Below, one piece after another: positions 28,037 to 41,081 of a stretch of DNA of 64,000 nt. The notes beneath the pieces are model-generated. The model was not told the origin of the DNA and made no database searches. It was given only the letters and a program-made list of their open reading frames with translations. The translations under genes and the position numbers were made by a program. The stretch comes from Myxococcota bacterium (lineage in GTDB: Bacteria > Myxococcota_A > UBA9160 > SZUA-336): NCBI GenBank assembly GCA_965247115.1, contig CBDFGR010000003.1, forward strand, positions 1-64,000, read 5' to 3'. The first letter of the stretch is position 1, and each line of letters begins with the position of its first letter.

Positions 28037-28690
28037 TCAGAGGTTGCCGGACAGTCGCGCCGCCTGCGCCCTCTGCACGGCAAGGTTGACGCGAGCGAGA
28101 GCGGACTTGAGTGTGGCCGTCTTCCTCTCGTCGTCGATCGCCCGGATTCCATAGCGCATATTCTTGCCGTACTCGCGCGCGCTCTGGACCACGACCGTAC
28201 CCAGAATCGAGTCCCCGTCGTGGTACAGCGTCGCCTGCATCGTCTGACCGATCTGGTACTGGGCGGTCGAGAAGACTGCGAAGCCCGTGGCGCTCACGTC
28301 GAGCACCTCGCAAAGCTCGGGATCCTCACCGAGCTGAGCCTTGATACCCGTCGCGTAGCACGAGACCCGGTAGCACTCGCGGCTCTCAGCGGAGACCGGA
28401 TCTCCCGTCGTCTCGAGCTCCATCGAGAGCCCGCTCTCCTCCGTCTGCACCGAGGAGAGCACACGCACTGGCTGCTGCATGAAGCGGCGGTTGACCTCGT
28501 AGTAGGCGATGACTTCAGCGCCATCCTCCAGCTCGAAACCCTGGACTTCGAAGGCGATGGTGAACCCCTTGGCCGAGATGGCCGACACCTTCCCGGCATG
28601 GAGCTTCGAGTGCTCCGGAGTCCGCACGAAGACGTCCATTTCGGTCTTCATCTTGGAACTCCTATGGGCGGGTCCGAGCCTCGCCTCCAC
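28037..28690 (-). CDS. PilZ-domain protein (start uncertain)
   Basis: RECYR and DVSATG c-di-GMP motifs. Confidence 0.8.
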   Translation of the reverse strand: MEARLGPAHRSSKMKTEMDVFVRTPEHSKLHAGKVSAISAKGFTIAFEVQGFELEDGAEVIAYYEVNRRFMQQPVRVLSSVQTEESGLSMELETTGDPVSAESRECYRVSCYATGIKAQLGEDPELCEVLDVSATGFAVFSTAQYQIGQTMQATLYHDGDSILGTVVVQSAREYGKNMRYGIRAIDDERKTATLKSALARVNLAVQRAQAARLSGNL

Positions 28691-30965: not shown

Positions 30966-31574
30966 CTAGAAGACCTCCAGGCCGAAGTTCGCGTTGTCAC
31001 AAGGTCCAACCTGATGCTGCATGGCGACGGCCGCACCCGTGGTCTGGGTGAGCTGACGGTTCAGCACGGTCGTGCAGCCCTGCGTCGCGCCGATCGTGAA
31101 GTTGTTCTTCAGATCGGGCTTCTGGAGGCCCCAGATGTTCAGCGTTCCGTCACCGTCGATGTCCGAGTTGCCGACCGCAAAGAACTGGTTGCTCGGCGGC
31201 GGGGCGTTCGTGGCAACGATGTAGTTAAAGTACACGTCGCCCTCCGGCTCCCAACCGATGAAGCAGTAGCCCGGATCGCCGGCCTGCGGCGGCGAGTTCG
31301 GACAGACGGTCCAGGCCGCCTTCTGCGAGTTGGGAGCTCCAGCCGGGGTCTGGCCCCAGTTCTGGAAGGTCCCGAGCTCTGCAAAGTAGGCTTCCTGCGC
31401 CGTGCGGATCGCGGCCAGGTTGAGCTTGCCCTCGCCCGCCTTCGATCGCAGCTGGAACTTCAGGAAGTTCGGAATCGCGATCGCTGCCAGAATCCCGATG
31501 ATCGCGACGACGATCATCAACTCGATCAGGGTAAACCCCTGCTTCTTCTTGAGCTTGTTGACCAATGAAATCAT
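30966..31574 (-). CDS. pilA: Type IVa major pilin
   Basis: KKQG/FTLIELMIVVAIIGILAAIAIPNF prepilin site; DIDGDG motif. Confidence 0.93.
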   Translation of the reverse strand: MISLVNKLKKKQGFTLIELMIVVAIIGILAAIAIPNFLKFQLRSKAGEGKLNLAAIRTAQEAYFAELGTFQNWGQTPAGAPNSQKAAWTVCPNSPPQAGDPGYCFIGWEPEGDVYFNYIVATNAPPPSNQFFAVGNSDIDGDGTLNIWGLQKPDLKNNFTIGATQGCTTVLNRQLTQTTGAAVAMQHQVGPCDNANFGLEVF

Positions 31575-31657
31575 GTTGTCTCCTCAGTTACGTCTTCGAG
31601 TACCCGCGCGGGCGTATCTGGAGGTACGCTTCGCGCAACTTCTTGATGGGGCCCTTG

Positions 31658-31674
31658 AGCAAGGGTCGTGCCCA
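31658..31674 (-). promoter_or_regulatory. Sigma54 promoter of pilA
   Basis: Minus strand TGGGCACGACCCTTGCT matches GGCACG-N4-TTGC with correct -24/-12 spacing. Confidence 0.8.
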
Positions 31675-31867
31675 GACCTGGGCGGGCACATCTCGCGGCG
31701 GCAAGTGCCGAGGTGATCGGCCCGACTCTGCTCGCGAATCGCCTTGTCAGGAGCAGCGCTAGACCGGACGCCGGAGGTGACACTGAGCGCGCCTCGAGAC
31801 GACGGATTTCGTCACCCGCCTGCCTGGTGGTCCGGACCGACACAGCTTCGTGGCGGGCAGCGGGCCT

Positions 31868-31885
31868 GAGCAAGCGGCCTTGCTC
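31868..31885. promoter_or_regulatory. Palindromic site GAGCAAG-CGGC-CTTGCTC
   Basis: Core GCAAG-N4-CTTGC also occurs twice at 38596-38632. Confidence 0.65.
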
Positions 31886-31924
31886 GACCTAAAGCAGGAG
31901 TACCGCGCCGCAGATACACAGGGT

Positions 31925-32260
31925 ATGGGCGGTCTGCAGCGTTCGACACCGAGATACAAGGTCCCGGCCCGTATTCAGTACGCGAGCGGCGAGCGGGAGG
32001 GCAGCGGTAGAATCGCGAACATCTCCTTCTCCGGGGCGCTGATCGAGCCCGCCTCTCCAACACCCTCGCCGGGCACCCCACTCGGTTTGCGCGCGTCGTG
32101 TCTCGCGTTCGCGGGCGAGCTCTCATCCGAGGTCGTGCGCACGACGCACTCCGGCTTCGCCGTCCGTTTCACCGAGCTGGACCCCGAAGCCCTCGCTGCA
32201 CTGCGCAGGCTACTCAGTCTTGCCGAGCTGAGGGTGGGATCCTCCCCGCGAACACCGTAG
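31925..32260 (+). CDS. Stand-alone PilZ-domain protein
   Basis: RSTPR and NISFSG motifs, GFAVRF. Confidence 0.85.
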   Translation: MGGLQRSTPRYKVPARIQYASGEREGSGRIANISFSGALIEPASPTPSPGTPLGLRASCLAFAGELSSEVVRTTHSGFAVRFTELDPEALAALRRLLSLAELRVGSSPRTP

Positions 32261-32382
32261 CTTTCTTCCCACGCCGAGGCGCACGAGCTGCGTTCCACGA
32301 CAGCTCTCCACTCGACCCTTGGTAGCCCCGCTTCTACGAAGTGATATGGTGGCAGCTGCCGATAGGGACGGAGATACGAGCG

Positions 32383-34611
32383 ATGGATGAGGTGTCGGGT
32401 CGAGCCTGCGCCCTGATCCTCGAGTCCGCTCTGGAGAGGGGCGGAACGGAGGCCGTACTTCTCGACGGCCTCTCGTTCAGATCCGGTGAGCTGCGTCGTC
32501 CACACAGCCGCATCGACTGGGAAGAGTTCACCATCTTCCTCGAGCGCTGTCGCACCTGCCTCGGCGGCATGGAGGCACTCGACGAGCTCGGTGCCCTGCA
32601 CGTGGGCCAGCCCTGGCCGTCCCTGGCACGATCGCTCGCGAAAGGGGTCGCGAGCGCTGCTGGACTGTACGCGCTCGGTCAGTGGAACGGACCCGCGAAC
32701 TTCTCGTGCACGCGCGTCGAGCTGGAGAAGCTCTCGAACGGACGCATCCTGCAGACCTTGGAGATCCTTCCCGGGTTCCGGGATTCCCCCGAGTTCTTCT
32801 ACGGCATGCGCGGGATCATTCGCGCCACGCCGCGGATGCTGGGGCAGCCCGATGCCGTCGTGGAGATGACGCTCACCACGCGCCGCGCGCGCTACGAGAT
32901 CACGCCGCCGCCCTCGCGCACGTGGTGGGCGCGCGCTCGTCGCCACATTTCTCGCAACGCATGGCTCACGGGAGCGCTGAAGGAGCTGAGCTTCCAGGAC
33001 TCGATGCTGCGCGAGAGCGAGCAGGAGAACCGCCAGACGGCACTGGCCTTGGACGAGAAATCGCGCCAGCTCGACAGCCTGAACGAGCTCGGCAGTCGGC
33101 TGGCGCAGCACCTCAGCATCGACGAGCTCGCCTCCGCGGTCACCAAGCTGCTCGAGGAGCACTTCAAGGTTGCAGGTCTGGTCTTCTGGGCGCGCGAGGC
33201 CGAGGGCGATGGTCTGGAAGAGGTGAGGCGCTCGGGCGACACCACCGGGGGGCCCGCACGTCGGATGGATCTGCACACAGCTGGGCGACGCGTCGGCGGG
33301 CTCTGGCTGTGGGAAGGCAGCGAGCAGCCTCGGAGCAGCGACGACGGGCGACTCGATTCTCTCGCCTCCTGGATCGCGCTGGCGGTCGACAACGCGCGCA
33401 CCTTCGAGACGCTGTCTCGTCAGACCCGGCGCCTCGAGCGCGAGATCGAGATCCGCAAGCGCACCGAGCAGCAGCTGTTCCAGGCCCAGAAGCTCGAGGC
33501 CCTCGGCGTGCTGGCTGGTGGGATCGCACACGACTTCAACAACATCCTGACGGCGATCCGAGGCTACGCCGAGCTCGCTGCGGAGCGTGTGGCCGCCGAC
33601 GAGACCTTGAGTCGAGATCTCGACGAGATTCGCATCGCCGGCGACCGCGGGTCGGCGCTCATCGCCCAGCTTCTGCTGTTCAGCAGGCGACAGATTCAGG
33701 AGCTGAGCCACGTCGATGTGAACCGCGTGATCGCGGGAATCGAGCGGCTGCTGCGGCGGCTGCTCGGAGAAACCATCGAGCTCGAGATCGCGTGGGGCTC
33801 AGACTTGCCGCCGGTTCTGGCGGATCCCGCGCAGCTCGAGCAAGTCATCGTGAATCTCGTGGTGAACAGCCGCGATGCGCTCCTGGGTGGGGGTCGAGTC
33901 GCCATCACGACATCGTGCGCTCCAGTCGGCACGGGAGCGGTCGTGCGGATCGTGGTCCAGGACGAAGGCACCGGGATGAGCGAGGAGACACGTGCCAAGG
34001 CCTTCGAGCCCTTCTTCACAACGAAAGCGCCGGGACGAGGATCGGGCCTCGGGCTGGCGACGGTCCACGGAATCGTGAGCCAGACCGGCGGCAGCGTGGA
34101 CGTGCAGAGCGAGCTCGGCCGCGGTACGACCGTCGTCGTCGAGCTGCCCGCATCAGAGGGCGAGGTCGAGCGGACGAGCGACGTCGAGCTGGCGACGACG
34201 CGCACCCGAGGGAGCGAGACGGTGCTGCTCGTCGAAGACGACACCCAGGTGCTGGAGGTCGGACGTCAGATCCTGGAGGGCCATGGCTACCAGGTCATCG
34301 CGTGCAGCTCCCCCGTCGAAGCGCTGGAACACTGCCAGTCAGAGGTCCAGCCAATCGACGTGCTGGTCGCGGACGTGGTGATGCCCCAGATGAACGGAAT
34401 CGAGCTCGCGCGGCGCCTCCGCCTGCTGGTCCCGGAGCTCCGCAACGTCTGGATGTCGGGGTATGCGCGGGATGACCTGCGGGGCGACCAGGACCCGGCC
34501 GGCATCTTCGTGAGAAAGCCGTTCACTTCCGAGACATTGCTCCTCGCCATACGCCGCACGCTTGCCATCGAGGGGGAGAGCGGCGACAAGCCCGACGAGG
34601 CTCCCGCGTAG
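32383..34611 (+). CDS. Soluble hybrid histidine kinase (N-terminal sensor, GAF-like, HisKA, HATPase, REC)
   Basis: LAGGIAHDFNN, NLVVNSRDA, DEGTGM, FEPFFTTK, GSGLGL, LLVEDD/DVVMP/KPF; no obvious TM helix. Confidence 0.95.
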   Translation: MDEVSGRACALILESALERGGTEAVLLDGLSFRSGELRRPHSRIDWEEFTIFLERCRTCLGGMEALDELGALHVGQPWPSLARSLAKGVASAAGLYALGQWNGPANFSCTRVELEKLSNGRILQTLEILPGFRDSPEFFYGMRGIIRATPRMLGQPDAVVEMTLTTRRARYEITPPPSRTWWARARRHISRNAWLTGALKELSFQDSMLRESEQENRQTALALDEKSRQLDSLNELGSRLAQHLSIDELASAVTKLLEEHFKVAGLVFWAREAEGDGLEEVRRSGDTTGGPARRMDLHTAGRRVGGLWLWEGSEQPRSSDDGRLDSLASWIALAVDNARTFETLSRQTRRLEREIEIRKRTEQQLFQAQKLEALGVLAGGIAHDFNNILTAIRGYAELAAERVAADETLSRDLDEIRIAGDRGSALIAQLLLFSRRQIQELSHVDVNRVIAGIERLLRRLLGETIELEIAWGSDLPPVLADPAQLEQVIVNLVVNSRDALLGGGRVAITTSCAPVGTGAVVRIVVQDEGTGMSEETRAKAFEPFFTTKAPGRGSGLGLATVHGIVSQTGGSVDVQSELGRGTTVVVELPASEGEVERTSDVELATTRTRGSETVLLVEDDTQVLEVGRQILEGHGYQVIACSSPVEALEHCQSEVQPIDVLVADVVMPQMNGIELARRLRLLVPELRNVWMSGYARDDLRGDQDPAGIFVRKPFTSETLLLAIRRTLAIEGESGDKPDEAPA

Positions 34612-34671
34612 CCAGACGAGGCCCGACAGCCTCAACCTTTCGCAGCGACGCTCCGATCTCAGCTAGCTGAG

Positions 34672-37083
34672 ATGAGTTCGCCGAGGCGAGTGCTGGACGC
34701 GGTCGAGAAGAACGTGGCCGCTGGCACGGAACTCGGGATGCTGCTGTTGCAGGCCGAGGACGAGCGCCTCGACGGCCGGCACCTGCTCATTCGCGGGCGA
34801 CGTATGCTCGCGTTCACATCCTGCAGCTATCTAGGTCTGGAACTCGACCAACGACTGATCGAGGGCTGCATCGATGCCGTACGTCGCTACGGCACGCAGT
34901 TCTCGGCATCGCGGACCTACATCTCGGCTCCCGGCTACGAGGAGCTCGAAGCTCTGCTGGCACAGATATTCGGCGGCCCCGTACTGACCGCCCCGAGCAC
35001 CTCGCTCGCCCACCTGACAACGCTGCCCGCGCTGGTGAGCGAGCAAGACGCCGTACTCCTCGACCAGCACGTCCACGAGTCCGTCCAGATGGCGGTCGCA
35101 CAGCTTTCGGCACAGGGCACCACGGTGGAGCGGGTCCGCCACAGCCACATCGATCGGGTCGAATCTCGAGTCAGGGCGCTGGCTCCTCATTGCGAGCGCA
35201 TCTGGTACTGCTGCGACGGCGTTTACAGCATGCTCGGCGACTACGCCCCGATCCCGGAGCTCCTGACCCTGCGGAATACCTACGAGCAGCTCCACCTCTA
35301 CGTCGACGACGCACACGGGATCGGCTGGAGCGGGCCCCGCGGCTCCGGTACGGTCTTGAGCAGACTTCCCTCCCGTGAACGGGTCTTCGTCGCGGTGTCG
35401 CTCAACAAATCCTTTGGCGCCGCCGGTGGGGCCGTGGTGTTCCCGAGCGCCCAGCTGCGTGATCGCGTGCGGCTGCGCGGTGGGCCCACACGCTACTCGG
35501 GGCCGATCCAGCCGCCGATGCTGGGCGCGGCCCTGGCTTCTGCTCGCATCCATCTGTCCGAGGAGCTCCCGCGCCTGCAAGAAGAGCTGCAGGAACGTCT
35601 GCGTCGGCGCAACGAGCTCGCGGGGGAGTGGGATCTCCCCCTGGTCAGCGGGGGCGATGTCCCGCTGGGCTACCTGCGACTGGGATCTCCCCACCTTGCC
35701 CAGAGCCTCACGCAGCGTCTGCTCGAAGCCGGGATGTACACGAACGTGGCGAGCTTCCCAGCGGTGCCCCCGGACGCGGCCGGAGTGCGCTTCACGCTAA
35801 CGCGCCACCACTCTCTGGACGACGTCCACTGTCTACTCGCCCACGTAGCGGAGCTGCTCCCCCGGGTCAGGGGAGAGCGAGCCGGGCGGCGGACCCCGAC
35901 TCCCAGCGACAGCAGTTTGCACACGGTGAGCGCCGCGCCGCACCGCACGGCTGGCTGGACGTGTCAGCACGAGACCAGCGTGCACCAGATTGGGCGGGAT
36001 GAGTGGGACCGGCTGATGCGAGGCACCATCTGCTTCGACTCTGCGGGCCTGGCATCGCTGGAAACGATCTTCGCGGAGGGGAATCGGCCGGAAGATCGCT
36101 GGAACTTCCACTACTACGTGATCCGCGACGCACAGGGCAGGCCGGTTCTTGCGGCGCACTTTACCGACGCGCTGTGGAAAGACGACATGCTCGCGCCTGC
36201 CGAGGTCTCCGTCCTCGTCGAGAACGACCGGCTCCGCGACCGGTATCACCAGACCACGCGGGTGCTCGCAGCCGGCACGCTCCTCAGCGAGGGGGACCAC
36301 GTCTACCTCGATCGCTCGCGGGACTGGCGACGCGGCCTCCGGATCCTCCTCGAACATCTCGCCCTCGAGAGCTCTCGCTGCGGGGCGGGTCTGGTGGTGC
36401 TTCGAGATCTACCCGCCGGCGACGCGGAGCTCGATCGAGAGCTCGCCGGCTCCGGCTTTGCTCGCATCGACCTTGCCGAGGGGATGAACCTGGATATCGA
36501 CTGGGCTGACGAAGAGGAGTTCCTGGCGCGTCTGAGTCGTCGCGCTCGCCGCTTTCAAAAGCGCATGGTCCAGCCGTTTGATGAGAACTTCGAAGTGGAA
36601 GTCCTGGGGGCTCAAACGCGCGCTCCTTCCGACGCTGAGCTGCGACACCTCGACCAGCTCTACCGAAACGTCAAGGACCGGAGCCTGGCCCTGAATACGT
36701 TTGCTCTCCCCGAGTGCTTCCTGCCGCGGATCCTGCAGGTCCCTGGCTGGGAGGTACTCGCCCTCACGCTGCGCAACCGACCGGTGTCCGAGGCGCAGCT
36801 GCCGCACGGCTTCGTCGCGAGCTTCCGCCACGGCGTGCAATACGTGCCCCGGGTGATCGGGCTGGACTACCGCTTTGTGCGCTCTCACGGTCTGTACAGA
36901 CAGTCGATCCGGCACATGCTGCGTCGTGCCGAGTCGCTTGGCTGCAAGCGCATGCTCTGCGGGATTGGCGCGAAATACGAGAAGAGCCGCTTTGGAGCTC
37001 GCGCGGAGCAGCGGACGATCTACCTGCAGCAGGCGGATCAGCTCACCTGCCGCCCGGAGCAACCCGCCTTCTCCCGGTCATGA
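34672..37083 (+). CDS. PLP-dependent alpha-oxoamine synthase fused to a GNAT/FemAB-like domain
   Basis: SCSYLGL, DQHVHES, DGVYSMLGD, DDAHG, SLNKSFG; C-terminal part with WADEEEFLARLSRRAR, GLDY, YEKSRFGA. Confidence 0.88.
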   Translation: MSSPRRVLDAVEKNVAAGTELGMLLLQAEDERLDGRHLLIRGRRMLAFTSCSYLGLELDQRLIEGCIDAVRRYGTQFSASRTYISAPGYEELEALLAQIFGGPVLTAPSTSLAHLTTLPALVSEQDAVLLDQHVHESVQMAVAQLSAQGTTVERVRHSHIDRVESRVRALAPHCERIWYCCDGVYSMLGDYAPIPELLTLRNTYEQLHLYVDDAHGIGWSGPRGSGTVLSRLPSRERVFVAVSLNKSFGAAGGAVVFPSAQLRDRVRLRGGPTRYSGPIQPPMLGAALASARIHLSEELPRLQEELQERLRRRNELAGEWDLPLVSGGDVPLGYLRLGSPHLAQSLTQRLLEAGMYTNVASFPAVPPDAAGVRFTLTRHHSLDDVHCLLAHVAELLPRVRGERAGRRTPTPSDSSLHTVSAAPHRTAGWTCQHETSVHQIGRDEWDRLMRGTICFDSAGLASLETIFAEGNRPEDRWNFHYYVIRDAQGRPVLAAHFTDALWKDDMLAPAEVSVLVENDRLRDRYHQTTRVLAAGTLLSEGDHVYLDRSRDWRRGLRILLEHLALESSRCGAGLVVLRDLPAGDAELDRELAGSGFARIDLAEGMNLDIDWADEEEFLARLSRRARRFQKRMVQPFDENFEVEVLGAQTRAPSDAELRHLDQLYRNVKDRSLALNTFALPECFLPRILQVPGWEVLALTLRNRPVSEAQLPHGFVASFRHGVQYVPRVIGLDYRFVRSHGLYRQSIRHMLRRAESLGCKRMLCGIGAKYEKSRFGARAEQRTIYLQQADQLTCRPEQPAFSRS

Positions 37084-37982
37084 AACCGAGACCGCGGCCC
37101 GGGCGCGTCGCCCTCCTCTGCGCCGCAACCGCCCTGCTCCCGCTGTGCGTCGTGTACGCGAGCACCGAGCTGCGCCTGCGCCGCGTCTACACGGTGCCCC
37201 CGGTGACGCTCGAGGTACCCACCGACCCCGCGTCGATCGAGCGGGGCCAGCACCTGGTCCACGTGATCGCCCAATGCACGAACTGCCACGGCGAGGACCT
37301 TGGCGGTCGCTCCCTCGGGTCGAACCCGTGGCTAGGCCGGCTGTCTGCTCCGAACCTGACCCCCGGCCACGGGGGACTCGGGTCTCACAGCGACGAAGAG
37401 CTGGTCTGGAGCATCCGGTACGGCGTCGGCCGCGACCGTCGCGCTCTGGTGATGATGCCTGCCCAGTACCTGAGAAGGGTAGGCGACACAGACCTCGGAG
37501 CCATCGTGGCTTACCTCCGCTCCCTGGCTGCCGTGGACCGCGAGGTCGCGCCGTTTCGGGCGGGGCCACTGGCGCGCCTGCTCCTGTTCCTAGGTCGGGT
37601 GCCTGACGTGGTCCCTGCGGAGGCCGTGATCCAAGCCGGCGAGCCGACGCCCCCGCCACCGCCCGGCCCCACCATCGAGTACGGCGGCTACCTGGTCGAC
37701 ACTGCAGGGTGTCGGATCTGTCACCGTCACGACCTGTCTGGCGGGCTCCACCCTCTCTCGCTGCCGGGTGAGCCCCGGCCCCCCCGACTCACTCCAGAAG
37801 GACCGCTGGCGGCCTGGTCGGAGCGGGATTTCCTCCGCACGCTGCGGACCGGAACGACGCCCGATGGGCGCGGCCTGGATGAGGCGTACATGCCCTGGCG
37901 CCGTATCGGACGCATGTCGGACCCGGAGCTCAAGGCAATCTGGCGCTACCTGCGTTCGCTCGAGCCGACGCGGCCGGGTTAG
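37080..37982 (+). CDS. Membrane-anchored dihaem cytochrome c
   Basis: CTNCH and CRICH, APNLT, MPW; N-terminal hydrophobic helix; ATGA overlap with the synthase. Confidence 0.92.
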   Translation: MKPRPRPGRVALLCAATALLPLCVVYASTELRLRRVYTVPPVTLEVPTDPASIERGQHLVHVIAQCTNCHGEDLGGRSLGSNPWLGRLSAPNLTPGHGGLGSHSDEELVWSIRYGVGRDRRALVMMPAQYLRRVGDTDLGAIVAYLRSLAAVDREVAPFRAGPLARLLLFLGRVPDVVPAEAVIQAGEPTPPPPPGPTIEYGGYLVDTAGCRICHRHDLSGGLHPLSLPGEPRPPRLTPEGPLAAWSERDFLRTLRTGTTPDGRGLDEAYMPWRRIGRMSDPELKAIWRYLRSLEPTRPG

Positions 37983-38536
37983 CGGCGGACCGGACGATCG
38001 TGCCCGATCATCTGCTGGACGGCCTGACGCGACACCCCCAGCAGGCGTCCCGCGGCACTGCGGTTTCCCCCCGCCAGGGCAAGCGCCTGGTCGAGCATCA
38101 CCTGGCGCACGCGCTGCTGAACCTCGCGGATCGGGGTCATCCCCACGTTCCGAACCACCTGAGCTTCGAACGCTGGCGGATCCTCGAGCGCTGAGTCGAT
38201 CGCGGTGCGCAGGCGTTCCAGCGAGAAGGGCTTGGTGACGTACCAGTGAACGCCTAGCCGCGCGAGCTCGAACGCCTCTTCTGTCGTGGCGAGGCCGCTG
38301 ATGGCGATCACCTTTGGAGCCGGTCTCATCTGGCTCGCGAGACGCGCGAGCTCGACGGCGCTTCCGTCCGGCAGGTGCACATCGAGCAAGACAAGCGGCG
38401 GCTTTGTCGCGAGCAGCTCGCGTGCCTTCGACAGCGTGTCTGCCCGAAGCACGTCGAAGCTCCAGCTTTCCGCAGCCCGCGCCAGCAGATCGCCAACCTG
38501 TGGATCATCCTCGACGATCAACACTCGCTGGGACAC
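37979..38536 (-). CDS. Response regulator, REC plus Fis-type HTH (RegA/PrrA-like architecture)
   Basis: LIVEDD, LLDVHLPDG, KPF, GGNRSAAGRLLGVSR. Confidence 0.92.
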   Translation of the reverse strand: MSQRVLIVEDDPQVGDLLARAAESWSFDVLRADTLSKARELLATKPPLVLLDVHLPDGSAVELARLASQMRPAPKVIAISGLATTEEAFELARLGVHWYVTKPFSLERLRTAIDSALEDPPAFEAQVVRNVGMTPIREVQQRVRQVMLDQALALAGGNRSAAGRLLGVSRQAVQQMIGHDRPVRR

Positions 38537-38595
38537 ACTTCACCCCCGAGACCACCAAAGGTAGCGGCCGGCGCGGACAGGACCAGTTTTCGAGT

Positions 38596-38632
38596 GCAAG
38601 CAACCTTGCGCTCTGGCGGCAAGCCCGCTTGC
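38596..38632. promoter_or_regulatory. Two GCAAG-N4-CTTGC palindromes 23 bp apart
   Basis: gcaag-caac-cttgc (38596-38609) and gcaag-cccg-cttgc (38619-38632) between divergent genes. Confidence 0.7.
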
Positions 38633-38688
38633 ACTGGGTCCCGACCCCCGAGAGCGGTAGCTTGCCTTGCGAGGGGATCCCGGCGTCC

Positions 38689-39543
38689 ATGCTCGACCTA
38701 GCCGCGCTGACCGAGGCCTGCTACGACCTGGACCCACTGCCCGCGAGCGCGACGCGGCTGATGCGGCTCGCGGCAGAGGCCGACGCGGATGTCGAGGAGA
38801 TCGTCACAATCGTCACCTACGATCCCGCGCTCACCGCGCGCCTGCTTCGGGTCGCGAACTCCGTCGAGGCCGGCGGAGTGCGCCCCATCGCTACGGTTCG
38901 GGCCGCAGTGCTTCGACTCGGCATCGGGCTCGTGCTCGGTATCGCGCTCGGGTCTTCGGCTCGCATGCACCTCAGCGCAGCGTCGCACGAGTACTACATC
39001 CAGGAAGGAGAGCTCTGGCGGCACTCGGTCGCGGCCGCCATCGCCGGTCATCTCGCACGGAGTGTCGCCGCCGTCGAGCTCCCGCTCGAGTCCTTCACCG
39101 CCGCGCTGCTGCACGACATCGGCAAGCTCGCGCTCCTGCGACACATGACGCCGGAGGTCTTCCACGTCATGCAGCAGGCAAGGGAGCAGACGAGCCTCAG
39201 CCAGCTCGAGGCCGAGTCAGAGATCCTCGGAATTCACCACGGTGAGCTCGGCGGCTTGATCGCACGGCACTGGCGCTTGCCGGAAAGGATTATCCAAGGC
39301 GTCACGCACCACCACGACCCGGCCGCGTGCGAGCAAGCCGAGGACAGCACGATCTGCTTCGTCGTGCACACCGCGGACCTGGTCGCAAAGCTCGCCGGTG
39401 CCGGAGTCGGCGAGGACGAGGCCGCCGGAATCGAAGAGCCCGCTCTTGCCACCGGGCGACTGGGCATGAGTGGCGACGGGTTTGCTCAGCTCTGCGAGCG
39501 GGTCAAGGAGAACCTGGACGCCGTGCTGCACTGGTACGCGTAG
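38689..39543 (+). CDS. HDOD-domain protein
   Basis: DPALTARLLRVANS, LWRHS, LLHDIGK, HWRLP, HHHDP. Confidence 0.95.
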   Translation: MLDLAALTEACYDLDPLPASATRLMRLAAEADADVEEIVTIVTYDPALTARLLRVANSVEAGGVRPIATVRAAVLRLGIGLVLGIALGSSARMHLSAASHEYYIQEGELWRHSVAAAIAGHLARSVAAVELPLESFTAALLHDIGKLALLRHMTPEVFHVMQQAREQTSLSQLEAESEILGIHHGELGGLIARHWRLPERIIQGVTHHHDPAACEQAEDSTICFVVHTADLVAKLAGAGVGEDEAAGIEEPALATGRLGMSGDGFAQLCERVKENLDAVLHWYA

Positions 39544-39686
39544 GCTCCCTCGCCGACTGCCCCAGAGCCGCGCCAGGAAATCTCGCGAGACCTCGAGCGT
39601 GTCCTTGCACGGGCCGGCGAAGGTGCCCTCACACCGGACCCACTACAGTCCCAGTGGGACTATGATGGCGCCCGGAAGGATCCCGC

Positions 39687-41081
39687 TTGACCCAGGCCGC
39701 TCCCACAGAGCAGCTCCATGCACTCCGACTCTCTCCGGTCGAGCGCTGTCTGCGCATCTTCACAGACATCCGGCCCGGCGAGGGGCGTACCGGCCTGATG
39801 ATGTTCGCCAACGTGCTGCTCATCCTGTGCGCCTACTATCTTGTGAAGCCATTGCGCGAGGGATGGCTCGCCGTGTCTACGGTCGAGGGGCTGACAGCGA
39901 TGGAGCTCAAGGCCTACTCGAGCTTCGCGCAAACCGTGCTCCTGGTTGGTGTGGTCGCCGTGTACGGCCGGCTTGTAGGTCGCTGGTCGCGCAGCGTCCT
40001 GATCACACGCTCCACGCTGTTCTGCATGTCGAACCTGCTCCTCTTCTGGCCCCTACAGCCAGACTTCCTGATCGGAGTGCTGCCGGGTGTGGGGATCGTC
40101 TTCTACCTGTGGGTCGGCATGTTCGGCGTCTTCGTGGTGGCCCAGTTTTGGGCCTTCGCTGCAGACCTGTACGCGGAGGAGCGCGGGAAGCGCCTGCTCC
40201 CGATGATCGCCATCGGGGCTACCAGCGGCGCGGTTGTGGGAGCCTGGCTGACGGAGCAGCTCATTGCCTCTGGGCTGCTGCGCACAGAGAACCTCATGCT
40301 CGTGGCGCTGGTGCCGCTCACCGCTTCGATCCTGCTGACGCGCAGCGCCGACAGCAGAGAGGCGGACCGCGAGGTGGCAGCCAAGGCCGCGGCGCCGAAG
40401 CCGGAGACGGGGGGAGCCCTGCCCCTGGTACTCAGGACACGCTTCCTGCTGGTCGTTGCGGTGATCACCCTGCTGTTGAACTGGGTGAACACGAACGGGG
40501 AGAACCTGCTCTTCCGGGTCGTCCAGGAGATGCTCGCGCGCGACCTCGTCGGCATGGGGATCACGGGTGAGGCAGAGGTCGTCTCCTACCTGCGCGATGC
40601 CACCACCGTATTCTATGGGAGCTTCTTCTTCTGGGTGAACCTGCTGGCCCTGGTCATGCAGGCGCTGCTGGCGTCGCGTCTGCTCAAGTACGGTGGCTTT
40701 GGCGCGATCTTCCTGCTCCTGCCAGTGATCGCTCTGATCTCGTACTCGGTCATGGCGCTCGTTCCGATCCTGATCGTGGTCAAGTGGATGAAGGTGGCCG
40801 AGAACGCCACCGACTACTCGATCAACAACACGGCACGTCACGTGCTGTGGTTGCCGATGAGCCGAGAGGTCACGTTCAAAGCAAAACCCACCATCGACTC
40901 GCTCTTCGTGCGAGCGGGCGACGGACTCGCGGCACTGACCGTCCTGATCGGGGTGCGGGTGTTCACGTTCCCGCTAGAAGCCTACATGGTCGTGAACATT
41001 GCGCTGGTCGCCGCGTGGCTGGCGGGCGGGCTGTGGGTCGTGCGCCGCTACGCGACTCTCTCGGAGTCCGGGGCAGCGTGA
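39687..41081 (+). CDS. NTT/TLC-like (ATP/ADP translocase family) MFS transporter
   Basis: YYLVKPLRE, QFWAFAADLY, GKRL, DYSINNT, KAKPTID...RAGD. Confidence 0.85.
   Translation: MTQAAPTEQLHALRLSPVERCLRIFTDIRPGEGRTGLMMFANVLLILCAYYLVKPLREGWLAVSTVEGLTAMELKAYSSFAQTVLLVGVVAVYGRLVGRWSRSVLITRSTLFCMSNLLLFWPLQPDFLIGVLPGVGIVFYLWVGMFGVFVVAQFWAFAADLYAEERGKRLLPMIAIGATSGAVVGAWLTEQLIASGLLRTENLMLVALVPLTASILLTRSADSREADREVAAKAAAPKPETGGALPLVLRTRFLLVVAVITLLLNWVNTNGENLLFRVVQEMLARDLVGMGITGEAEVVSYLRDATTVFYGSFFFWVNLLALVMQALLASRLLKYGGFGAIFLLLPVIALISYSVMALVPILIVVKWMKVAENATDYSINNTARHVLWLPMSREVTFKAKPTIDSLFVRAGDGLAALTVLIGVRVFTFPLEAYMVVNIALVAAWLAGGLWVVRRYATLSESGAA

Follow-up and report, generated by a model that had tools for sequence, protein, structure and literature searches.

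The 64,000-nucleotide stretch of DNA analysed here (the window) is the start of contig CBDFGR010000003.1 (C3) in the 98%-complete genome of a Myxococcota bacterium (GCA_965247115.1, hereafter G000; GTDB lineage Myxococcota_A; UBA9160; SZUA-336). Between positions 31824 and 39686 it holds a six-gene block in which a soluble hybrid histidine kinase precedes a fusion of an alpha-oxoamine synthase (AOS) with a tandem GNAT domain, and this synthase and sensor are the subject of the present analysis. All six open reading frames named in an earlier first-pass annotation were found, in the order and orientation given there: a single-domain PilZ protein (31925–32260, forward strand), the kinase (32383–34611, forward), the fusion gene (34672–37083, forward; 803 amino acids), made up of an N-terminal AOS domain (34672–35871) and a C-terminal tandem GNAT of FemABX type (35938–37083), a membrane-anchored dihaem cytochrome c (37080–37982, forward), a response regulator with a REC domain (D52) and a Fis-type helix-turn-helix (HTH_8; 37979–38536, reverse) and a stand-alone HDOD protein (38689–39543, forward). 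The block boundaries proposed there coincide with an indel: the whole of 31824–39686 is replaced by only 312 bp in a genome of the same genus (G002), with collinear flanks of 86–88% identity. In this genus the block therefore behaves as a single unit, whether by gain or by loss. Its conserved core consists of three genes, those for the soluble sensor, the AOS fusion and the dihaem cytochrome c, with PilZ and HDOD as accessory genes, the latter linked within the same genus. Beyond the core, no neighbour is conserved across genera in the class loci, nor is any exporter or tailoring gene other than the cytochrome, and no sigma-70 promoter or relevant terminator was found at the locus.

The association of synthase and sensor was measured across 191 genomes of the class, which contained 43 synthase genes (in 35 genomes) and 98 copies of the sensor domain. 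A sensor-domain gene lies directly upstream, within 3 kb, of 40 of the 43 synthases (13 in tandem, 27 divergent), and all 35 synthase genomes carry a sensor domain. Twelve of the 40 pairs had helped to build the sensor profile; among the other 31 synthases, 28 are adjacent. Two of the three unpaired synthases lie within 200 bp of a contig end, leaving one real exception, in G121. Tree comparison of the partners covered 41 pairs, of which 39 came from class loci and the others were L012 and L083, with one truncated pair left out; it gave a distance correlation of r=0.85 against 0.21 for the best of 2,000 permutations, and swapping partners lowered r in all seven two-copy genomes. The congruent trees show inheritance as a unit, not ligand co-evolution.

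The linkage extends beyond the class. In a family of Gammaproteobacteria the sensor domain is present in 7 of 38 genomes, and six of the seven sensor-domain kinases adjoin the same fusion. Neighbourhoods were mapped for 80 loci drawn from all genomes and for 10 more from relatives. Across phyla, 37 of the 80 have a kinase gene no more than 1 kb away, kinase genes occupying 28 of 108 sides in the near zone versus 5 of 108 in the far zone. The sensors at these loci are of other types; those found beside the same synthase clade in other phyla include MASE7, other membrane domains, CHASE8 and PAS-GGDEF. The first-pass annotation had named an absence of linkage between homologues and such kinases as grounds for abandoning its proposal; adjacency in 40 of 43 cases and congruent trees are what was found. 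We consider it probable that the two proteins form a signal-receptor pair.

Side observations from these maps show the range of layouts. Bacteroidota loci fall into two layouts. In one (L028, L031–L033, L041, L045–L051, L057, L077, L086) a stand-alone AOS is accompanied by a single REC protein and a membrane PAS kinase; in the other (L065, L068, L075, L078, L081, L088, L090) the fusion occurs with DUF7793 and a soluble PAS kinase. In Solirubrobacter (L013, L018), by eye, the fusion is divergent from a membrane PAS-GGDEF-type gene located upstream on the opposite strand.

The synthase fusion is widespread; scoring 8,000 candidates gave 915 clusters at E≤1e-20. Residues H135, D182, S186, D212, H215, K246 and R373 of the AOS domain, whose catalytic roles are general knowledge for the family, are invariant in 117 aligned homologues. 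The domain scored below the cut-off of every named AOS family tested: 264 bits versus 342 for PRK07505 (NF005697), 155–157 versus 426 for BioF (TIGR00858), 138, 112 and 94 versus 500, 640 and 670 for the Spt models, 90 versus 339 for ALAS and 67 versus 428 for the CqsA type (NF005526). In a quick tree of 52 rows (23 of the 44 family rows were used and one of the 30 reference rows was omitted), the family formed one clade (SH-aLRT 99), sister to the PRK07505 proteins (98; joint support 100) and separate from Spt, Kbl, BioF and the CqsA-family protein L199, which scores 491 bits on NF005526 and sits on a long branch. By profile and tree, then, the synthase is placed in a clade of its own and is not a CqsA, a Spt or a BioF. 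Its best solved relative is PDB entry 8XHA (157 bits), which is Alb29, described as condensing L-glutamate with acyl-CoAs (PMC11906848). No CqsA above cut-off occurs in the 38 gammaproteobacterial genomes. A metagenome scan with a single protein gave no match. One gammaproteobacterial genome has a second fusion paralogue, of 794 amino acids and on a long branch (L204, G206:C1:1543054-1543878).

Could the enzyme be a housekeeping BioF, Kbl or Spt that adjoins unrelated signalling genes by chance? The fusion is the only full-length AOS match in G000, and bioB is present in that genome. That gene lies elsewhere, in agreement with the remark in the first-pass annotation that no biotin genes are nearby; bioD was not found in the genome and no bioA match there reaches cut-off. 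The synthase was itself not found in 156 of the 191 class genomes, including same-genus G002, and other fusion-bearing genomes retain their own Spt, Kbl and BioF-like genes. Together with the scores below every cut-off, the separate clade that distinguishes the enzyme from BioF and Kbl (a point the first-pass annotation had referred to phylogeny) and the linkage in 40 of 43 cases, these data strongly disfavour a housekeeping enzyme, the least probable of the explanations considered.

The second half of the fusion would determine what becomes of the AOS product. Its AlphaFold model (pLDDT 93) is a tandem GNAT, whose best structural matches are FemX (Z 22.9, root-mean-square deviation (rmsd) 4.2, 299 aligned), Sbb17 (22.1), FemA (21.4) and FemXWv (20.3). 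All four are aminoacyl-tRNA enzymes; MprF comes next (17.6), and the acyl-CoA tandem GNATs reach 17.5 or less (best 16–17.5). Foldseek agrees with the Fem-type matches, and the Atlas search placed the domain with FemAB_like/Acetyltransf_6 clusters at 0.96. Pfam assigned PF13480 to 42 and PF04339 to 9 of 61 members, NCBIfam has no named family for it and a profile search of PDB sequences with the transferase alignment returned nothing meaningful. In HHalign, the transferase profile matched a FemAB-family protein (one sequence) at 52–61% over 155–180 columns.

Some residues parallel those of Fem proteins. A basic helix in the second GNAT domain (amino acids 618–634) carries a net charge of +1 to +7 (mean +4.3) in 61 of 61 members, with R626 conserved in 97%, and aligns in HHalign with the Fem basic helix. 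Near the C-terminus, K771 is invariant within E-K-x-R-F-G, which resembles F-K-E-G-F of the FemAB protein; the HHalign alignment with that protein stopped short of K771, which is thus only a candidate counterpart of K305 of FemXWv. An invariant tyrosine, Y742, sits at the position of the CoA pyrophosphate loop, where acetyl-CoA GNATs have Gly or Ala. For FemXWv, a tRNA-binding helix and Lys305 have been described (PMC12945691). On this modelling, transfer of an amino acid from an aminoacyl-tRNA appears likelier than N-acylation, and we put an aminoacyl-tRNA donor at somewhat better than even.

The first-pass annotation had instead proposed N-acylation of the aminoketone from acyl-CoA or acyl-ACP (acyl carrier protein); the resulting ceramide-like lipid would be sensed within the cell by the neighbouring kinase. 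The linkage evidence (40 of 43, congruent trees) serves that proposal equally, acyl-CoA tandem GNATs also reach Z 16–17.5 and fatty-acyl-AMP ligases adjoin some relatives of the fusion. The regulator SphR, which probably has the same domain type as the sensor, offers a further parallel. Its ligands are sphingoid bases, and a cytochrome c gene is under its control (PMC5150637). However, the AOS lies far under all Spt cut-offs and outside the Spt branch, and the block contains no gene for an ACP, an acyl-ACP synthetase or a reductase. YghO of E. coli has been named as a ceramide N-acyltransferase homologue (PMC9386255), and the transferase showed no similarity to it (HHalign 0.3%, the level of shuffled sequences, for one YghO sequence compared by profile). 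With Y742 at the CoA-loop position and aminoacyl-tRNA enzymes as the four best structural matches, we consider this chemistry unlikely. What stands of the original description is the GNAT fold; the FemABX kind matches better than acyl-CoA GNATs or YghO, and the ceramide-like chemistry is not supported.

The kinase contains HisKA (with the phospho-accepting H383), HATPase and REC (with the receiver Asp, D664) domains and no hydrophobic 19-mer above 1.48; it has no transmembrane stretch, and its earlier description as a soluble hybrid kinase was borne out. A GAF-like segment was recognized by eye only, with no Pfam match there. In the class, the partner gene always starts with the same soluble domain of about 190 amino acids, which in the window spans about residues 1–186 (32383–32940, forward strand). 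Its model (pLDDT 91.5) matches the folds of H-NOX (Z 14.6, rmsd 3.5, 170 aligned) and of the VirS ligand-binding domain (Z 13.8, rmsd 3.4, 177 aligned) about equally well; TRAPP, V4R, CdpR and DmpR come next. PF12625 was detected in one homologue above cut-off and in one below, and the window's own kinase has no Pfam match at the input domain; the Atlas search returned only scores under 0.9 (leads to V4R and DUF2378), and a profile search of PDB sequences with the sensor alignment gave nothing meaningful. The family is large, with 1,443 representatives at E≤1e-10, whose outputs (40 scanned of 150 listed) are kinase, GGDEF-EAL, LuxR helix-turn-helix and AraC helix-turn-helix, the last in one of the 40.

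The haem motif of H-NOX proteins comprises a ligating His and Y-x-S-x-R. In 140 homologues of the input domain no His column exceeds 31%, the query having Tyr there, and Y-x-S-x-R is not among the conserved columns. Because a conserved His is lacking, the modelled pocket is likely haem-less, and the domain, a small-molecule-binding fold related to H-NOX/V4R and to PF12625, is a likely receptor. In VirS, the matching domain binds a small molecule (PMC13234193). An H-NOX sensor of NO or O2 grouped with an ALAS-like enzyme and a cytochrome c, in other words a haem- or gas-sensing module, would fit the top fold matches and the co-conserved cytochrome. Given the His columns, an ALAS score of 90 bits versus 339 and a fused transferase that has no place in haem synthesis, we regard it as very improbable. 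Two observations concern the kinases themselves: that of same-genus G001 (L222:1-1815) lacks the GAF-like segment (about residues 245–364) and has a copy of the palindrome described below inside its REC-coding end, and at L170 three sensor-domain kinases lie within 9 kb with no synthase nearby.

The third core gene, whose start overlaps the synthase stop, encodes a cytochrome c that has two CxxCH motifs and, at its N-terminus, a hydrophobic helix. In 23 of 41 pairs it comes after the synthase, and of the 32 class genomes that have the cytochrome, 28 also carry the synthase; it is absent beside the gammaproteobacterial pairs. The protein resembles cytochrome subunits of flavoprotein dehydrogenases, and no conserved flavoprotein partner was found near it in the class loci.

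At both ends of the block, as the first-pass annotation had noticed, stands the palindrome GCAAG-N4-CTTGC, once at 31870–31883, about 55 bp before the PilZ start, and twice between the divergent regulator and HDOD genes (38596–38609 and 38619–38632, together 38596–38632). Genome-wide it is barely enriched (10 seen versus 6.6 expected), but of 670 segments of 7.7 kb only 11 contain three copies of any rare palindrome. As a synthase-linked element it was rejected: among 95 regions upstream of synthase and sensor genes, none contains it. The exact palindrome lies upstream of 5 of 10 regulator orthologues and downstream of two more from two other families, and it is present in G001 also, where one copy is kept between regulator and HDOD. 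Because its copies track regulator orthologues and not the synthase, the palindrome is likely the operator of the REC-Fis regulator. Its position bracketing the G000 cassette suggests a feedback loop added in this genus, for and against which we see the balance as even. The regulator scores 47.5 bits versus a cut-off of 250 on the RegA/PrrA/ActR model NF033791, with which it shares architecture only. Upstream of some regulators (L225, L228–L231) there is a conserved hairpin-rich element, possibly a structured RNA, ending in a shared purine-rich word about 50–60 bp before the palindrome. In one genus (L115, L117–L121, L124, L126, L127, L129, L131, L132, L134), a different candidate operator, a TCAAG-N(7-11)-TCAAG repeat with a conserved promoter-like word, lies between divergent sensor and synthase genes.

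The first-pass annotation had also proposed cyclic di-GMP and pilus outputs, which are not conserved. PilZ is not upstream of the G001 kinase and stands beside the module in no other locus examined, and G000 has about ten single-PilZ paralogues. Outside G000, linkage of the regulator and HDOD genes to the synthase occurs only in same-genus G001. The type IV pilin gene pilA (30966–31574, reverse strand), with its N_methyl motif, is outside the indel block and kept in G002. Upstream of it, by eye, is a GG-N10-GC site at about 31657–31675 resembling the sigma-54 consensus. Also in the window are a second PilZ-domain protein 3 kb upstream (28037–28690, reverse) and, outside the block and conserved in G002, a 464-amino-acid multi-pass membrane protein without a Pfam match (39687–41081, forward).

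Taken together, the data allow a mechanism to be sketched. From the chemistry of its family, the AOS half of the fusion would make an alpha-aminoketone by condensing an amino acid with an acyl-thioester, and the Fem-type half, judging by fold and motifs, would cap the amine with a second amino acid from an aminoacyl-tRNA. The N-aminoacyl-aminoketone may then cyclise to a pyrazinone, by analogy with the chemistry of the signal DPO. The linkage suggests that the product, or its cyclised form, would bind the haem-less H-NOX/VirS-type pocket of the sensor and alter kinase activity. The REC-Fis regulator would, in this genus, be the likely recipient of the kinase's phosphate, and by binding GCAAG-N4-CTTGC upstream of the PilZ-kinase-synthase-cytochrome run, of itself and of HDOD it would close a feedback loop. 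The weakest of these steps is that of the cytochrome, which may accept electrons as the molecule is oxidised or turned over outside the cytoplasm. As a whole, a co-inherited synthase-receptor cassette has, in our estimate, slightly under an even chance of being right. The narrower proposal, that the fusion is a dedicated single-polypeptide synthase for an autoinducer of pyrazinone type (DPO/AI-3-like) or aminoacyl-aminoketone type, made from an aminoacyl-tRNA, an amino acid and an acyl-thioester, with the haem-less H-NOX domain as its cognate cytoplasmic receptor, is speculative and should be held with considerable doubt.

Several observations weigh against a synthase-receptor cassette. Within the class, 58 of the 98 sensor domains have no synthase next to them, and in 26 genomes with a sensor domain no synthase was detected. 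Elsewhere in the phylum, this sensor neighbours only 1 of 11 synthases, and two of the 11 adjoin fatty-acyl-AMP ligases. A stand-alone AOS without transferase occurs in 5 of the 41 pairs, and in many partners (L093, L094, L106, L108–L113 and L123 among them) the kinase is not intact. The genomes surveyed are kin, and the counts therefore overstate independence. As to the donor, the Pfam families matched (PF13480 and PF04339) do not indicate a donor, and a Fem-like fold is not proof of tRNA use. As to the regulatory loop, five of the palindrome-bearing regulator orthologues belong to one genus, and regulator orthologues occur in eight genomes without the synthase and are unlinked to it in two that have it. 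Finally, the fatty-acyl-AMP ligase and polyketide synthase (PKS) neighbours at L171, L172 and L020 fit ordinary secondary-metabolite synthesis.

Some of these points have details of their own. The kinase-deficient partners keep the input domain and the GAF-like segment, and their kinase core is absent, degenerate or reduced to REC; five of them adjoin a stand-alone AOS from which the transferase has been lost. A LuxR-type output for the stand-alone-AOS loci was entertained and dropped once the sequences were read. The relatives at L171 and L172 adjoin fatty-acyl-AMP ligase genes, L020 adjoins a PKS, L179 is an ACP-AMP-binding-AOS fusion and L180 is similar in length and layout; these five are biosynthetic uses of the same AOS clade.

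One alternative is one-way control in place of autoinduction, in which the sensor would respond to an external or precursor molecule by turning on an enzyme that makes a secondary metabolite or envelope component, kinase-less partners acting on other kinases or on the enzyme. Orphan sensor domains, fusions of the domain elsewhere to GGDEF-EAL, LuxR and AraC outputs, the 27 of 40 divergent pairs (an arrangement typical of regulator and target), the catalytic output missing from many partners and the biosynthetic neighbours in other lineages are all as it would have them. Yet unrelated sensors have been recruited beside the same synthase clade in other phyla, which is expected if the product is sensed, and no exporter or tailoring gene except the cytochrome is conserved in the class loci. 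We judge one-way control improbable, though the likeliest of the rival explanations.

If the synthase and sensor do form a signalling cassette, what follows? The locus is likely to represent a new chemical signalling circuit in myxobacteria-like and marine bacteria, and it puts names to an enzyme and a soluble receptor for a likely signal in lineages for which the literature searched describes none. It offers a candidate ligand class for the large unannotated H-NOX-fold family of 1,443 representatives, and since both proteins are soluble the claim is directly testable. A signal made with an aminoacyl-tRNA donor would report translation status. Were the autoinducer-synthase proposal true, paralogous cassettes within one genome would be separate chemical channels, and the class of quorum sensing would extend across Myxococcota, Gammaproteobacteria and, with other receptors, Bacteroidota; a pyrazinone product would make the fusion a dedicated synthase of the kind reported missing for DPO in the account of PMC12930378.

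Among the titles and abstract openings listed, our search found no description of the AOS-transferase fusion or of its receptor, and the comparison was made with systems related by parts. In the Cqs and Lqs systems an AOS-family synthase is likewise clustered with a sensor kinase and a response regulator. CqsS and LqsS are membrane proteins, whereas the sensor here is soluble (maximum hydropathy 1.48) with an H-NOX/VirS-type domain; the synthase here is not of the CqsA clade (67 versus 428 bits; separate branch), and a fused Fem-type transferase and a co-conserved cytochrome c are added. CqsA/CqsS and LqsA/LqsS/LqsR are described as alpha-hydroxyketone quorum-sensing systems (PMC4669118). For DPO/AI-3, an aminoketone and an activated amino acid give an N-aminoacyl-aminoketone and then a pyrazinone, read by a soluble receptor, VqmA; that source reports no dedicated synthase (Tdh plus leaked Ala-AMP) (PMC12930378). 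The product predicted here follows the same logic with a soluble receptor, the difference being that one polypeptide would do both steps.

Among enzymes, Alb29 (the albogrisin AOS, PDB 8XHA) is the closest solved AOS and PRK07505 the sister clade, the present AOS differing in its score below the PRK07505 cut-off (264 versus 342), its fused transferase and its sensor partner. DhpH-C, VlmA, Orf11 and Sbb17 are described as FemABX-fold aminoacyl-tRNA transferases of natural-product pathways (PMC12945691); the double GNAT fold and the basic helix are shared, and the invariant Lys near the C-terminus is a candidate further parallel, whereas identity is only 11–14% and the domain here is fused to an AOS. 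Ketomemicin synthesis, a six-gene cluster, likewise pairs a pyridoxal-phosphate C-acyltransferase (KtmB) with an amino-acid-ligating enzyme, there the ATP-grasp ligase KtmD, and has no sensor gene among the six genes listed in its source (PMC11943689). Bacterial ceramide synthesis, described as Spt plus aca/YghO (PMC9386255), resembles the fusion in that a transferase modifies the amine newly made by an AOS, and differs in that the present enzyme is neither Spt nor YghO-like and has no acyl carrier, acyl-ACP synthetase or reductase gene in its block. With VirS/PF12625 the sensor shares its fold, with a kinase in place of the AraC helix-turn-helix output; with H-NOX gas sensors it shares the fold (Z 14.6) and not a conserved haem-ligating His. 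In LgsGA3/TetRGA3 of Bacteroides fragilis, the AOS gene is likewise divergent from that of a soluble receptor, and the enzyme's product is released as a regulatory molecule; the receptor is a one-component TetR protein and the synthase is described as CqsA-like, with no transferase domain mentioned in the abstract (10.1101/2025.08.20.671311). On the features tested, the locus falls outside Cqs/Lqs, ceramide synthesis, BioF and H-NOX, and in its proposed working it resembles Cqs/Lqs and the B. fragilis Lgs/TetR system.

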